The notes beneath the pieces were generated by a model, which ran no database searches, was not told the origin of the DNA, and was given only the letters and a program-made list of their open reading frames with translations. The position numbers and the translations under genes are program-made. From NCBI GenBank assembly GCA_937883775.1, contig CAKZXZ010000178.1:22223-86222 (forward strand): a stretch of DNA of 64,000 nucleotides, in the 5' to 3' direction. Position 1 is the first letter of the stretch. Each line of letters begins with the position of its first letter. The DNA comes from an uncultured Rhodobacteraceae bacterium (GTDB taxonomy: Bacteria; Pseudomonadota; Alphaproteobacteria; Rhodobacterales; Rhodobacteraceae). Positions 48,883-54,695 of the stretch are shown here, piece after piece.

Positions 48883-49833
48883 TCAACCCGTGTAACGCGC
48901 TGCCGCTCCGGCAGACACGTCGATTGAGGAACCTGTGATCATCGCTGCGGCCGGTGAGGCGAGGAAAACAGCCGATCCCGCAATATCTTCCGGCTGCAGA
49001 AGTCCGACATCGAGCTGGTGATAGTTCGCAGCTAGCCATTCGTTAGACCCGTCGATCTGCTCTTGCGTTCTGGGGCCACCGAACCCCGTTTGAACGGCTG
49101 TAGGCGAAACGGCGTTGACCGTGATGCCGCTCTTGCCGACCTCGATTGCCAGAGACTTCATCATGCCCATCGTGGCCCACTTTGACGCGATATAGGCTGG
49201 ATTGGACGCATTACCCTGACGCCCGAAAGTTGAACTGATCAGGATCACGCGACCAGCACCTCTTTCCGCCATGGCAGGGACGGTCGCCCGCAGTGTCGCC
49301 GCGGTGCCTTTCACATTCACGTCTGTCAGCACTTCCCAGTGCTGTTCCCATGCCGCCTCATCTTCAGTCAGAAAGCCGGCATTTGTGTTTACGCCGGCAT
49401 TTGCAACCACGATCCCTACTGGTCCGAGAGCGGCCTCCGCCTCGGCCACGGCGGCCCGTTGTGCTTCAAGGCTGCGGATGTCTCCCGCAAAGGACATGAA
49501 ACCGACACCCGCGGCCTCCACACCGGCCCTGGTTTCAGCCATGTCTGCCGGTGTCGCCATCGGAATTGGGAAACCGGGCAAATCTTCCAGTACGTCATAT
49601 GCAACCACGTTGGCTCCCGCTTCTGCCATTCCAACAGCAATCGCGCGTCCGATGCCCCGCGCGGCACCTGTGATGAACACGGTTTGACCGGCAAGCACCC
49701 CGGCGGCTTCGCTTTGTTGAGCAGACGCGGCAGTTGCGCCCAAGCTCATGGCAGCAGCGCCAGTCGCGATTGCAGCGCCTCCGGCGAGCGCAGCGCGTCT
49801 TGTCGGATCTTGCGGAGAATTTTCGTCGATCAT
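48883..49833 (-). CDS. SDR-family oxidoreductase with twin-arginine (Tat) signal peptide
   Basis: ATG 49833 with an AGGAAAGGA SD. TRRAALAGGAAIATGAAAMSLGATAASAQ, then VFITGAARGIGRAIA (Rossmann). YIASK active-site region. Confidence 0.8.
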   Translation of the reverse strand: MIDENSPQDPTRRAALAGGAAIATGAAAMSLGATAASAQQSEAAGVLAGQTVFITGAARGIGRAIAVGMAEAGANVVAYDVLEDLPGFPIPMATPADMAETRAGVEAAGVGFMSFAGDIRSLEAQRAAVAEAEAALGPVGIVVANAGVNTNAGFLTEDEAAWEQHWEVLTDVNVKGTAATLRATVPAMAERGAGRVILISSTFGRQGNASNPAYIASKWATMGMMKSLAIEVGKSGITVNAVSPTAVQTGFGGPRTQEQIDGSNEWLAANYHQLDVGLLQPEDIAGSAVFLASPAAAMITGSSIDVSAGAAARYTG

Positions 49834-49875
49834 CTCGTTTCCTTTCCTGTTGAGATCGTGAGGGTTTTGCGCCAC

Positions 49876-51030
49876 TCAGTTTGGCGGTGGGGCATCTACA
49901 TCCGACCACGCGGCCACAAAGTCGGACATACGCGCACCTTGAATTTCGATCCCCCGGACGGTGGCATTCAGTTCTTCCAGCTCGCCAGAGGTGAAGGACA
50001 CGTCTGCACCGCCAATGTTTTCGACGAGATGCGCCATCTGAGTGGTCCCCGGGATCGGGACGACCCACGGGGCTTGCGCCGACAGCCAGGCCAAGGCGAT
50101 CTGGCCGGGGCGTGCGCCTTTGCGCTCCGCCCAGTCTTGGACGAGCCTCACCAGCGCCATGTTTGCTGGGAGGTTCTCCGGTGCCATCCGAGGCGTGCCA
50201 GCGCGATAATCTCCCGGTGCAAACGTCGTGCTCTGGTCGATAGCACCGGTCAGGAAGCCATACCCAAGCGGAGCGAATGGAACGAAACCGATGCCGAGCT
50301 CGGCACAGACAGGCAACACTTCCGCCTCAGGTCCGCGATAGAGCATCGAATACTCGTTCTGTACCGCTGCGACGGGGAGTTCCGCATGCGCACGTCGCAG
50401 GGTGCTCACGCCCATTTCAGAAAGGCCCCAATGCAGCACCTTGCCTTGGTCCATCAATTCGCGGACTGCGCCAGCGACATCTTCAATCGGCACCGCCGGG
50501 TCGACACGGTGTTGGTAAAGCAGGTCCACACGGTCGGTATTCAACCGACGCAAGGACCCTTCAACGGCGCGTTTGATGTGGTCGGGGCGACTGTTGAGAC
50601 CGCCCCTGAATTCACCCGTGTCCAGGTCTAGGTCGAAGCCGAATTTCGTCGTGATCTGGATGTCGTTCCGAAAAGAGGCCATTGCCTCACCTAGGATGCG
50701 TTCGCACTCGTGGGGGCCATAAAATTCGGCACAGTCGAAAAACGTCACACCTCCCTCATAGGCTGCGCGTATGAGGTCGATCTGCGCGGCTCGGTTGGGG
50801 ATGAGTGTCGTGAAGGTGCGTGTGTTGTTCTGCACACCAAGTCCGATTGCGGATACTTCCAGGCCACCAAGCATCCTTCGGCCGCTCCCTGCCTGCGCAG
50901 TTGCGCTAGAGTTTTGGGCGAGTGCACCTCCCGAGGGAAGCACCCCCATTGCGGCAACGGCGGCCCCTGCTGTCAGAACCGCGCGACGCGACGCGTTGAT
51001 TGGCTCGTTCTTCTTCCCTTGATCTTCCAT
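49876..51030 (-). CDS. aldo/keto reductase with Tat signal peptide
   Basis: [26 protein letters not shown], then [11 protein letters not shown]...[14 protein letters not shown]...[10 protein letters not shown]. Confidence 0.85.
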
Positions 51031-51071
51031 GCTAGTACTCCTGTCTTCTCTTGTTCTTTGGTTTGGCTCCC

Positions 51072-52774: not shown

Positions 52775-53718
52775 CAGTCCGCCTCGCCGATAGCAAACGC
52801 GAATTGGAACGCGCGCGGATCGTAGTATTCACGGAACAACGTGATTTTTCCGGCCTCGTTAACATGAAAGAGACCACCGTAAATCTGGCGATACTCCCGA
52901 CCCGTGGGGACGATGTCGACGCGCCCACGAAACTCAACGAATACGGTTTGCGGATCACGCATGGGATAAAAGACAAGATGATCGGTGAAGTTCGGATTTC
53001 GTGCGTTGTCTGGCCAAGCGGCATAGAGTGCGATCAGTGCATCACGACCACTGACGCGGCGCGGTGTGCCTGCTGTGTTGAACGGCATGTCCTGCACCGC
53101 ATCTTCGGCCCAGACGCCATTCACTCGCTCCATGTCTTTGTCTTCGAGCCCTTCAAGAAAATCGAGCACCGCCTGACGCGTGCGCTGACGCGCGACATAC
53201 GAGGGTGGAGATGCGGCCGCAGCGGCCATCGCCGGCACAAAAACATCCCGCGAGCCGGTTTCTTCTTCGAGCGTGAAGGTCATCGAAGTGATGCGCCAAC
53301 CTTCTTCGTCGCGAATGAGTTCGTAGTCGTAGTGTCCCTTGACCTCCCAATAGGCGGTATCAATCCAATGGCCGGCGACGACATCGGCGCGAGCCGTGGC
53401 GTGATCGCCCGAAACTTTTGCCGCAACGTTCGACAGGGCATGACGCGTTCGGTCGAACCCAGGGAGCGTCGCCGACCATTCGGTCATAAGCGATGTAGGG
53501 CTCCTGAGTTCTGCTGGCTGGCCGGACAGTGACGAGTAGTCCACCATCACTTCATCCGCATAGAGCCTTTCCAGTGCCTCGAAATTACGCGTATCCGCGA
53601 GGATGACGACGCTCTCGACAATCGTTTCTATTGCGGCTTCGTCTGCCGAGCTGGCCTGGGCCGGTAATGCGGCGCTGGCGGCGATGGTCATCATCAATGC
53701 TCCTAAGATGCTTTTCAT
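52774..53718 (-). CDS. secreted protein with two NTF2/SnoaL-like domains
   Basis: Sec-type signal MKSILGALMMTIAASAALPAQA. Two repeats follow the pattern ..FEALERLYADEVMVDY.. and ..VNGVWAEDAVQDMPF.. Confidence 0.7.
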   Translation of the reverse strand: MKSILGALMMTIAASAALPAQASSADEAAIETIVESVVILADTRNFEALERLYADEVMVDYSSLSGQPAELRSPTSLMTEWSATLPGFDRTRHALSNVAAKVSGDHATARADVVAGHWIDTAYWEVKGHYDYELIRDEEGWRITSMTFTLEEETGSRDVFVPAMAAAAASPPSYVARQRTRQAVLDFLEGLEDKDMERVNGVWAEDAVQDMPFNTAGTPRRVSGRDALIALYAAWPDNARNPNFTDHLVFYPMRDPQTVFVEFRGRVDIVPTGREYRQIYGGLFHVNEAGKITLFREYYDPRAFQFAFAIGEAD

Positions 53719-53729
53719 GCGAACCGGTC

Positions 53730-54695
53730 CTATTGCAGGGTTTTCGCGAAATGTTCTGCGACCGCGTCGCTGGCGGTCGAGACCGCCGTCGCATCGTCGT
53801 AGAAATCGAACTGAGTGACGTCGTCGAGCCAGCGTTCGGCTCGAGGGCCAGCCAACAGCGCGCAGAAGGTGTGAGCACCCTCGGGGATGGCTGCAGCCTC
53901 CGAATGGACGATTTGCACTGGCGTTTCGGCCAGCGTCGGCGCCAGGGCAATCGCGTCATAGGTCAGCCAAGGCTCCCAAGAAGCCAGGTTGAACTCATTT
54001 ATGTATTCGGGGATCAGGCCGCGGTCGCGCTCTGTGTAATATGGCGCCTGATACATGATCGCCGTGTCATCGGTGACGCTCGCGGCCGGCACCATCCGCT
54101 GCTCGCCCGATTGCTCGAACGCAGTGTCTGCATCTCGACTGCTCGCGATCAGGCGTGAAACCGCATCGCTGCCGCCATAAGTCGCCTCAACGATCTCGCG
54201 ACTGTGCAGCCAAGGCGCAACAAGGGCGAGCGAGCGGATATTCACAGAGCGCGCCGTCGCATCGGCCACGTAACCCGAGCTCGCACAAATCCCAAGCCCG
54301 CCGATGCGCGTTGGATCAATTTCGGGGCGCGTCGCCAAATAAGCCGCTGCGGCGACGATGTCCTGCGTCTTACGCTCAGGATGCTCATATTGTCGCCGTT
54401 CGCCTTCGGACTGTCCCCAGCCGCGAAAATCGAACGTCATCGCGGCATAGCCGCGGTCGGCCATTTCAGCCGCGTAGACGCGCGCCATCTGCTCTTTGAC
54501 GGTCGTCCAGGCGCCAGTGACGATAACAACCGGAAGCCTGTCCCCGTCCTGATAGTCTTCGGGCAGATAGAGATCACCAATGAGACGGTCGCCACTGCTC
54601 TCGAACACGACGCGCTTGGATACCGCAGCCTCTGCCGTTCCGCCTAATGAAACAGCCATTTCGCCGACTGCAACTGACATGGATTTGAGTGACAT
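53730..54695 (-). CDS. alpha/beta hydrolase fold protein
   Basis: LPVVIVTGAWTTVKEQ...FDFRGWGQSEG...GGLGICASSGY (nucleophile elbow region). First gene of the operon. Confidence 0.7.
   Translation of the reverse strand: MSLKSMSVAVGEMAVSLGGTAEAAVSKRVVFESSGDRLIGDLYLPEDYQDGDRLPVVIVTGAWTTVKEQMARVYAAEMADRGYAAMTFDFRGWGQSEGERRQYEHPERKTQDIVAAAAYLATRPEIDPTRIGGLGICASSGYVADATARSVNIRSLALVAPWLHSREIVEATYGGSDAVSRLIASSRDADTAFEQSGEQRMVPAASVTDDTAIMYQAPYYTERDRGLIPEYINEFNLASWEPWLTYDAIALAPTLAETPVQIVHSEAAAIPEGAHTFCALLAGPRAERWLDDVTQFDFYDDATAVSTASDAVAEHFAKTLQ

Follow-up and report, generated by a model that had tools for sequence, protein, structure and literature searches.

We analysed a 64,000-nucleotide (nt) stretch of DNA from an uncultured Rhodobacteraceae bacterium (contig CAKZXZ010000178.1 of assembly GCA_937883775.1, positions 22,223 to 86,222 of the forward strand), referred to below as the window, and in it a gene cluster at 48883-54695 that is predicted to encode mainly exported oxidoreductases of the nicotinamide-dependent type. 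According to the open reading frame (ORF) list and Pfam, the cluster consists of six co-directional ORFs, all on the minus strand, which we term G1 to G6 in the order of transcription. G1 (53730..54695) encodes an alpha/beta hydrolase (Pfam Peptidase_S15, Hydrolase_4, and DLH), G2 (52774..53718) a tandem NTF2 protein (SnoaL_4 + SnoaL_2) with a signal peptide at 53718..53653, and G3 (52079..52774) a classical short-chain dehydrogenase/reductase (SDR) of 231 amino acids (aa) without signal peptide (adh_short, 1.3e-42). They are followed by three genes for proteins with putative twin-arginine (Tat) signals: G4 (51072..52052; signal 52052..51924), a classical SDR of 326 aa; G5 (49876..51030; signal 51030..50917), an AKR13-like aldo/keto reductase (AKR) of 384 aa (Aldo_ket_red, 7e-64); and G6 (48883..49833; signal 49833..49720), an SDR of 316 aa that belongs to the carveol-dehydrogenase/nicotinoprotein type. 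The sequence-only reading of this DNA had named the same domains in the same order (hydrolase, tandem SnoaL/NTF2, SDR, SDR, AKR, SDR) with a Rossmann or AKR core after each Tat signal; Pfam agrees on both counts, with adh_short in G4 and G6 and Aldo_ket_red in G5.

The intergenic distances from G1 to G6 are 11, -1, 26, 41, and 42 nt, and the start of G3 overlaps the stop of G2 (TGATG). These gaps of -1 to 42 nt and the start/stop overlap are consistent with the six genes forming one transcript, as expected from the minus-strand operon with minimal gaps that had been proposed. Shine-Dalgarno sequences of the AGGA/GGAG type were seen by sequence reading ahead of G1, G4, G5, and G6, so the good ribosome-binding site claimed for each Tat-signal gene is present. 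Scans for consensus promoters and terminators gave counts not above those of shuffled sequence. The longest-ORF starts of G4 (TTG 52085) and G6 (GTG 49875) are probably wrong, the true starts probably being ATG 52052 and ATG 49833; each of the latter is preceded by an AAGGAA Shine-Dalgarno, and the resulting 326-aa and 316-aa proteins are the gene calls in L081 (L numbers denote the loci compared), an independent assembly contig of 5.5 kb, apparently of the same organism, whose G5 and G6 are identical to those of the window.

Export signals of the oxidoreductases and their partners

The signals were judged by their conservation across homologues. The whole G4 signal is MVDDKASVEPDNEINTSRRAVLGGAAAVGASITAGLVPGSASA, followed by Q (NTSRRAVLGG..GSASA, with predicted cleavage before QG); that of G5 contains SRRAVLTAG...ALA with cleavage before QN; and the whole G6 signal is MIDENSPQDPTRRAALAGGAAIATGAAAMSLGATAASA, again followed by Q (DPTRRAALAGG..AASA, cleavage before QQ). 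All three combine a polar n-region, the motif S/T-R-R-x-[VA]-L, 22-25 uncharged Gly/Ala-rich residues, and an AxA site, which is ASA/Q in G4, ALA/Q in G5, and ASA/Q in G6. The twin arginines (RR) stand in the contexts T-S-RR-AVL (G4), A-S-RR-AVL (G5), and P-T-RR-AAL (G6), each of which conforms to S/T-R-R-x-hydrophobic-L. For G5, at least 8000 homologues were scored and the signal was checked in the 120 closest (64-80% identical, about 375-390 aa): the RR motif is present in 118 of them, and the remaining two have truncated starts. Among 120 homologues of G6 the motif occurs in 78. Down to roughly 44% identity the G6 homologues without RR are fragments or late starts, and from about 44% downward full-length, signal-less cytoplasmic forms are mixed with Tat forms; in an alignment of 29 sequences from the G6 clade, neither R12 nor R13 varies. 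The close family of G4 is small, with RR in most of the top 30 representatives (50% clustering), where the signal precedes a conserved RF-x-GK-VLITGATSGIG start.

Could the motifs be non-functional, the proteins cytoplasmic, and the true starts located downstream? The motifs read SRRAVL or TRRAAL rather than SRRxFLK, so that the consensus Phe and Lys of S/T-R-R-x-F-L-K are missing from G4, G5, and G6, which is the point in favour of this explanation. We consider it hardly credible, since the n-region, the arginine pair, 20-25 uncharged residues, and the AxA site are kept across hundreds of homologues, the N-terminal extensions are included in the gene calls of L081, and the signal-less paralogues of the G4 and G6 families are 45-60 residues shorter at the N-terminus. 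Starts downstream of the signals, which had been put forward as a possible refutation, are excluded as far as sequence can tell because the N-terminal signals are conserved. The twin-arginine motifs quoted by the sequence-only reading for G4, G5, and G6 were found where it had placed them and, to judge from their conservation, they are real, ancestral features of these families.

Export also appears to be sorted by cofactor use. All 15 of the exported SDR and AKR proteins whose N-termini were read (in the window operon and in L001, L082, L163, and L165) carry RR, and Sec or lipoprotein signals are found on the exported partners without cofactor (tandem NTF2, single SnoaL_4, SGL, and hydrolase proteins), one SnoaL_4 protein being ambiguous. 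Cofactor loading ahead of export would be expected to give this pattern. The signal of G2 is of the Sec type (MKSILGALMMTIAASAALPAQA, cleavage before S) and G3 has none, both as previously described. The ambiguous case is an exported single-domain SnoaL_4 protein in L082 (10186-10773) with an RR pair of its own (DPFRRVTLKIVAAVLVLGAASPVLA), which may use either Sec or Tat.

Folds, cofactors, and candidate chemistry

The structural argument for a retained cofactor comes from G6. Its best NCBIfam model by a wide margin is TIGR03971 (mycofactocin-coupled SDR), with 233 bits against a curated cut-off of 300. The nine best PDB sequence matches are all TIGR03971 members, mycobacterial carveol-dehydrogenase structures that co-purified with NAD, and the 22 best Foldseek matches of the AlphaFold 2 (AF2) model (pLDDT 86) are likewise all TIGR03971 structures, with target-normalised TM values of 0.84-0.91. 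After the NAD-specifying Asp80, between beta2 and alpha2, G6 has an insertion loop (minus strand, 49552..49593; residues 81-94, VLEDLPGFPIPMAT) in a region modelled at pLDDT 90-95, and its alignment with 3s55 and 3t7c runs without gaps across this loop. TGxxxG and NAG are 90 residues apart in all G6-type proteins and 75-78 apart in the classical SDRs of the same loci. In the 29-sequence alignment S201, Y214, and K218 are invariant; the clade is found in Rhodobacteraceae, other Proteobacteria, and Cyanobacteria.

In the mycofactocin-coupled enzymes this loop buries the NAD and the cofactor does not exchange, according to crystallography and NMR work (Haft et al., PMC5264612), and its deletion abolishes tight NAD binding, while grafting it onto another SDR is insufficient to confer such binding (2026 study, PMC12985038). 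The alignment and the spacing support the view that the G6 loop is the counterpart of the NAD-burying loop, which would favour a non-exchangeable NAD in G6 and would provide a structural basis for its export as a holoenzyme. TIGR03971 proteins have been stated to occur only in genomes with mycofactocin genes (PMC3023750, PMC5264612). Radical-SAM and Mft genes were absent from the neighbourhood gene lists of L081, L082, and L163-L167 and from the annotated ORFs of the window. G6 shares with TIGR03971 proteins (LimC of Rhodococcus; 3S55, 3T7C, 3PGX) the beta2-alpha2 loop, the Asp for NAD, GAARG, and the Ser-Tyr-Lys residues, but it differs from these cytoplasmic enzymes in its sub-threshold score, in its Tat signal, in having GIGRAIA where the mycobacterial enzymes have GQGRSHA, and in the lack of mycofactocin genes in the neighbourhoods read. 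On these sequence comparisons, the G6 clade is most aptly seen as a sister clade whose lid-loop SDRs have been redirected to the periplasm.

The other oxidoreductases are more conventional in their folds. The adh_short E-values of G3, G4, and G6 range from 1e-41 to 1e-43, and the classical-SDR motifs (TGxxxGxG, NNAG, catalytic Ser, and YxxxK) were located in all three. The residues after beta2 are NGRR in G4 and SARS in G3. In the coenzyme-based classification of SDRs basic residues at the position after beta2 point to NADP(H), and the NGRR of G4 suggests a preference for NADP(H). The best PDB match of G4 is 7djs, followed by levodione reductase and NEPS. In L001 and L082, too, the G4-type gene is immediately preceded by one for a G3-like, signal-less SDR. 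G5 matches perakine reductase AKR13D1 (3uyi) from end to end (1.9e-63, 218 bits) and PF00248 with 216 bits, and its Asp-Tyr-Lys-His tetrad, aligned to perakine reductase, lies in FFDxxxxYG, TKFG, and YxHRxD. Thus G5 resembles the AKR13 enzyme over the full length and in the catalytic tetrad, and it is unlike both perakine reductase and Kv-beta (AKR6) in its Tat signal, a feature common to nearly all of its closest relatives. Kv-beta shows that an AKR can bind NADPH very tightly; no characterised member of the AKR clade of G5 was found.

The closest structures to the hydrolase G1 are E. coli YcjY (PDB 5xb6, 2.7e-26) and P. aeruginosa PA2218 (2HDW), for neither of which we know of a function. 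Its nucleophile elbow, GLGICASSG, has a Cys (family motif G-[IV]-C-A-S-[AS]-G), and Cys137, D247, and H264 are at least 95% conserved across 70 homologues. The DLH match is marginal (24.2 bits, cut-off 21, covering only part of the profile), and the weak DLH and lactonase-model matches fit a putative thiol ester/lactone hydrolase. In fold, elbow Cys, and the conserved Asp and His that follow, G1 is like dienelactone hydrolase, YcjY, and PA2218, but its family differs from them in being exported and in its fixed place beside the tandem-NTF2 gene. Nearly all of about 70 G1 homologues have Sec or lipoprotein signals, so the earlier description as an alpha/beta hydrolase stands with the correction that this family is exported too; the signal of the window G1 (MSLKSMSVAVGEMAVSLGGTAEA, cleavage before A) is degenerate, with a Glu inside the h-region.

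For G2 there are 461 homologous matches, of which the best 120 are 54-83% identical, and an N-terminal signal-like region is present in 26 of 26 aligned family members. The family extends over Alpha- and Gammaproteobacteria, Cyanobacteria, Planctomycetota, Verrucomicrobiota, Binatia, Acidobacteriota, Latescibacterota, and SAR324, among others. Structure prediction, which had been suggested for the NTF2 pockets, gave a confident tandem-NTF2 fold (AF2, pLDDT 91) and no single chemistry, as the individual domains match several enzyme types: in Foldseek they match YesE, PA3332, LEH, and PhzA/B well, with TM of 0.8-0.9 for the superposition on single-domain SnoaL, LEH, YesE, and PA3332 proteins, and the full length retrieves the tandem-NTF2 polyether epoxide hydrolases Lsd19 and MonBI-MonBII at an rmsd of about 17 A and 12-17% identity. 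On the strength of these models G2 may be an isomerase, dehydratase, epoxide hydrolase, or cyclase. It is like Lsd19 and MonBI-MonBII in having two fused alpha+beta barrel NTF2 domains in one chain, and unlike them in being exported, in forming its own tightly conserved family, and in the poor superposition of the whole chains.

Recurrence, decay, and mobile context

Two genes for AraC-family regulators lie upstream of G1 on the minus strand. R2 (55705..56601; HTH_18, HTH_AraC) is intact, 298 aa long, and 82% identical to its counterpart in the same position of L001, a locus of an uncultured Rhodobacteraceae genome. R1 (54804..55690), located by tblastn with the 293-aa R1 of L001, is a pseudogene with at least three frameshifts and in-frame stops, the L001 protein matching it in two frames (tblastn and three-frame translation); the frameshifts could be true decay or assembly errors. 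Downstream, the operon has the six genes expected and also runs on into a seventh, shortened one that had not been listed: G7 (48374..48871, minus strand) is the remnant of a Sec-exported SGL (SMP-30/gluconolactonase-like) gene, which has acquired a premature stop and kept only the part for the N-terminal ~140 residues. In tblastn the 319-aa L001 G7 is matched in the window over residues 33-173 only, and the match crosses the stop codon. Full-length SGL genes adjoin G6-type genes in L001 and L163/L164. Outside the system, at 48091..48552 on the minus strand, is what is left of an enoyl-CoA hydratase gene, a C-terminal fragment that matches the ECH_1 profile at positions 130-215 of 251 only, and the SGL remnant running into this fragment (48091-48871) is a deletion or recombination scar at the 3' end of the operon.

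These lesions raise the question of whether the window locus is an eroding, functionally dead remnant of an L001-type operon, which would not exclude the other explanations discussed here. The frameshifts in R1, the truncation of G7 and its fusion to the enoyl-CoA hydratase fragment, and the Glu in the h-region of G1 speak for it, and the same G7/enoyl-CoA hydratase arrangement is found in the independent assembly L081. Against it stand six consecutive intact ORFs of 231-384 aa, an intact R2, the chance that the frameshifts are assembly errors, the catalytic residues present in the four oxidoreductases, and the 76-81% identity of G2-G5 to L001 (62% for G6 and 34% for the hydrolase). We regard a dead locus as quite improbable.

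Co-occurrence was assessed by tblastn of the window proteins over 80 genomic loci holding G2, and by unsupervised clustering of the neighbouring ORFs. A broad travelling trio emerged: G2 in 80/80 loci, a G1-type hydrolase directly upstream in 72/80, and an R1-type AraC gene in 57/80; by ORF clustering the numbers are 74, 66, and 56 for G2, G1, and AraC, respectively. In Binatia a LysR gene takes the place of the R1-type AraC gene. On these counts the trio of AraC regulator, exported Cys-hydrolase, and exported tandem NTF2 protein is conserved across at least eight phyla. The six-gene set as a conserved unit elsewhere could not be upheld, as only L001 among the 80 loci is complete; this locus also encodes an additional lid-loop Tat-SDR and an exported SGL protein of full length, and its hydrolase is of another type. 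Partial combinations also exist: a Pleurocapsales cyanobacterium (L019) has a G4-type Tat-SDR gene between G1 and G2, Parvularcula maris (L013) and an Alteromonas metagenome-assembled genome (MAG; L025) have G3-type SDRs with the trio, Allosphingosinicella (L059) has a Tat-AKR of 72% identity next to it, and a cytoplasmic AKR occurs in seven cyanobacterial loci and in L067 (Pseudomonadota MAG). A cluster of SDRs found in 10 loci was rejected as a sign that G4-type genes are common, since it lumps unrelated cytoplasmic SDRs and the Tat forms occur only in L001 and L019.

G4-type and G6-type Tat-SDRs are found together with an AraC gene in four further loci, L001, L082, L163, and L165. L082 further contains a G3-like SDR, a cyanobacterial-type cytoplasmic AKR, a third Tat-SDR, an isochorismatase, and an exported SnoaL_4 protein 38% identical to domain 1 of G2 (31-38% for the exported SnoaL_4 proteins of the G4/G6-pair loci as a whole); the pair is accompanied by an exported SGL protein in L163/L164, and by a third Tat-SDR and an exported SnoaL_4 protein in L165/L166. 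The isochorismatase in the window (43204-43800) was considered as the counterpart of that in L082 and rejected at 21% identity and E 0.009. To judge from these gene orders, two recurrent modules have been fused into the six-gene set in a lineage-specific manner, one with AraC, hydrolase, and tandem NTF2 genes and one with AraC and paired G4-type/G6-type Tat-SDR genes plus accessory genes. The repeated relinking of the parts in varied combinations and in distant phyla argues for a functional relation over accidental adjacency.

A metagenome scan with the G6 alignment, using patterns that were too general ([VI]TG[AG]ARGIG and similar), returned generic SDRs of at most 38% identity only. Against 72,556 plasmids, tblastn with G6 gave no match, and with G2 only a single-domain Vibrio homologue paired with a hydrolase, so that the operon is not known from sequenced plasmids. 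This minimal version of the hydrolase/NTF2 pair (L172, 6973-8429) is on plasmid pTHAF190c_b of Vibrio sp. THAF190c, a strain cultured from a microplastic surface, and consists of an alpha/beta hydrolase gene immediately followed by a gene for a single-domain NTF2 protein 37% identical to domain 1 of G2.

The locus appears to be cargo of an integrative conjugative element next to tRNA-Arg, as suggested by the gene content of the window. A conjugation module at 12476-31173 includes an SLT transglycosylase, a relaxase (DUF3363/MobA), a TraG/VirD4 coupling protein, a TrbB-like ATPase, and TrbE/L/G(CagX)/I (Trb-type genes at 13764-31173), and its G+C content of 63-66% is higher than that of the rest of the window. 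It is followed in order by a cargo cluster, four AraC genes, isochorismatase, GST, and LtrA genes, the operon, tRNA-Arg, and suf genes. The tRNA-Arg(CCG) gene (56914..56990, minus strand; ARAGORN and Rfam) is the likely integration site bounding the element, and the Rfam scan yielded tRNA only. The cargo cluster on the minus strand at 31369-38517 (LysR, MFS transporter, Zn-ADH-like (MDR) oxidoreductase, old-yellow-enzyme flavoreductase, and aldehyde dehydrogenase) resembles a further unit for redox conversion or detoxification of small molecules, in which the long N-terminus of the old-yellow-enzyme ORF probably reflects a mis-called start. The four consecutive AraC-family genes at 39256-42941 (193, 290, 298, and 343 aa) together with R1 and R2 make six within 17 kb of cargo. 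Neither an integrase nor a second att repeat was found in the window, and a search for a second copy of the tRNA-Arg 3' end, which would have marked the opposite boundary of the element, was negative. What does recur is the 5' part of tRNA-Arg, as an 18-nt direct repeat (56966-56983 and 57145-57162) located 180 nt away, before sufS, and perhaps left over from an earlier integration. Mobile genes also neighbour the relatives: TrbI/G/F-like genes in L001, ArdC, ParB, and DUF736 in L082, and transposases in L163. Because of the Trb module and the tRNA here and the mobile genes beside these three loci, we regard the operon as accessory mobile cargo, a status which fits a catabolic or detoxifying role and would explain the mosaic make-up. 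Elsewhere in the window are two large ORFs without Pfam match, one of 422 aa (798-2066) that clearly has a signal peptide and contains a motif resembling those of beta-propellers (EFGPDNTLFVADS), and the other of 686 aa (2557-4617).

Such a setting could also mean that there is no pathway at all, and that general periplasmic detoxifiers of carbonyls or electrophiles, or redox-neutral isomerases, epimerases, and cyclases, were merely gathered on a mobile element. This would account for the non-conserved six-gene set, for the very large Tat-AKR family whose members occur alone or in varied LysR-regulated AKR/SDR clusters, and for cargo rich in other oxidoreductases and AraC genes; the structural relatives of G4 moreover include the non-oxidoreductive NEPS cyclases. 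It is distinctly unlikely in our view, as the tight spacing and the start/stop overlap indicate co-transcription, and as genes of the G4 and G6 types are seen again beside those for exported NTF2 or SGL proteins in four independent arrangements and beside the trio in phyla far apart.

A putative periplasmic pathway and its precedents

We propose, with a probability of roughly 0.55, that the cluster is a real operon encoding a mainly periplasmic pathway, in which the nicotinamide enzymes are exported by Tat as holoenzymes beside exported partners. The periplasm has no NAD(P)H pool. In the proposed mechanism G4, G5, and G6 would fold and load their cofactors in the cytoplasm, G6 with NAD (Asp80 and lid loop) and G4 and G5 probably with NADPH, and would pass the Tat system with a non-exchanging cofactor, for which there are good grounds in G6 and none in G4 and G5. 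The substrate would be a small, probably hydrophobic, alicyclic compound bearing an ester or lactone and sensed by the AraC regulators; the nearest characterised relatives, at 30-40% identity, act on alicyclic alcohols and ketones (carveol, levodione, cyclohexanol, nepetalactol, and perakine). Its ester or lactone would be cleaved by the Cys-hydrolase G1 and originally also by the SGL lactonase G7, carbinol oxidation and ketone or aldehyde reduction would be carried out by G6, G4, and G5, and the NTF2 pockets of G2 would serve in isomerisation, dehydration, or epoxide opening. The bound cofactors would be recycled in place, either by paired oxidative and reductive half-reactions in a ping-pong manner similar to that of glucose-fructose oxidoreductase (GFOR) or by redox-neutral catalysis, and G3 would start or finish the pathway in the cytoplasm. 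A more specific version, which we offer tentatively and at clearly less than even odds, is that mycofactocin-independent lid-loop Tat-SDRs and Tat-exported NADP-type SDRs and AKRs act as pre-charged hydride shuttles in a self-balancing sequence of oxidation, rearrangement, and reduction, aided by the exported NTF2 and lactonase proteins, with G3 perhaps entering the periplasm by hitch-hiking on G4.

Several observations weigh against the periplasmic pathway. The claim that the cofactors are tightly bound gained the lid loop of G6, which is the strongest support and applies to G6 only, and it found no known sequence signature of tight binding in G4 or G5. Even G6 stays below the TIGR03971 cut-off and departs from the mycobacterial glycine motif. 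The operon includes a signal-less cytoplasmic SDR (G3) and no cofactor-recycling gene, the balanced set of half-reactions is purely hypothetical, and the substrate suggested by SDR, AKR, and NTF2 relatives of 30-40% identity is a weak conjecture. The window copy is without a working R1 and G7 and may be poorly expressed or non-functional. Furthermore, a more distant G6 homologue is solitary in L167, and the Tat-AKR occurs in unrelated contexts, for example alone beside a LysR gene in Tateyamaria; together with the rarity of the full set, this means that the enzymes need not share one substrate.

The missing recycling gene leads to another explanation, that the bound NAD(P)(H) is recycled by an external carrier such as cytochrome c, the quinone pool, or a mycofactocin-like mediator, and that net, respiration-linked redox chemistry takes place. 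The nearest characterised relatives of G6 need an external acceptor (DCPIP, or mycofactocin in vivo), and solitary G6-type genes exist, as in L167 beside a PQQ-type GSDH gene, where a lone enzyme has no partner oxidoreductase. In Brucella lupini (L170, 6001-11798) a 66% identical Tat-AKR heads a LysR-controlled cluster of AKR, AKR, SDR, SDR, AKR, and ApbE genes. ApbE is a flavin transferase that acts outside the cytoplasm, and this cluster, which ends with it, may be another periplasmic redox set. The five loci with a G4/G6 pair, on the other hand, hold no cytochrome, flavoprotein, quinone-reactive, or mycofactocin gene, and the fact that an NAD-type and an NADP-type Tat-SDR are repeatedly found as a pair suggests that their reactions are opposite and coupled. 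An external carrier therefore seems unlikely to us.

The periplasmic pathway with self-contained cofactors has a known principle behind it. Two papers (PMC8121099, PMC4628093) describe GFOR of Zymomonas mobilis, the aldose-aldose oxidoreductase of Caulobacter, and, as a proposal, Bacteroides BT2158 as Tat-exported Gfo/Idh/MocA proteins; according to them, enzymes of the GFOR type are exported folded with non-dissociable NADP and couple the oxidation of one substrate to the reduction of another. The lactone product of GFOR is hydrolysed by an exported periplasmic gluconolactonase, according to the first paper (PMC8121099). GFOR had been named as the textbook precedent by the sequence-only reading, and the comparison proved apt and closer than foreseen, since G6-type genes too sit beside exported SGL genes. 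The Zymomonas lactonase belongs to the SGL family. The window enzymes are thus like GFOR-type enzymes in being nicotinamide enzymes with twin-arginine signals and in the SGL partner beside G6-type genes. They are unlike them in having SDR and AKR folds and not that of Gfo/Idh/MocA (PF01408/PF02894), so the likeness is one of function and not of membership; they also differ in that several enzymes of opposite inferred cofactor preference are found in one operon together with NTF2 and Cys-hydrolase genes.

In a full-text literature search no work on Tat-exported or periplasmic SDRs, AKRs, or nicotinoproteins came up, and the only precedents were those of the Gfo/Idh/MocA family, which is consistent with the statement that no such pathway had been characterised. 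The principle of periplasmic holoenzymes of the GFOR type is known; what is new is the folds, the lid-loop clade outside a mycofactocin context, and the multi-enzyme arrangement. Three further families, the AKR13-like reductase, the classical SDR, and the nicotinoprotein-type SDR, have large clades with conserved Tat signals and are apparently unstudied. The G6 loop offers a testable structural reason for cofactor retention and, as far as the neighbourhoods read indicate, would break the reported mycofactocin-only rule for this type of SDR. The trio of AraC regulator, exported Cys-hydrolase, and exported tandem NTF2 protein is an uncharacterised system in its own right. If confirmed, the enzymes could be useful as cofactor-independent biocatalysts or biosensor parts, and they would point to hidden periplasmic transformations of environmental compounds, mostly marine ones judging by the sources. 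The proposed pathway, if true, would represent a second, fold-independent solution to the problem of periplasmic redox chemistry without free cofactor.

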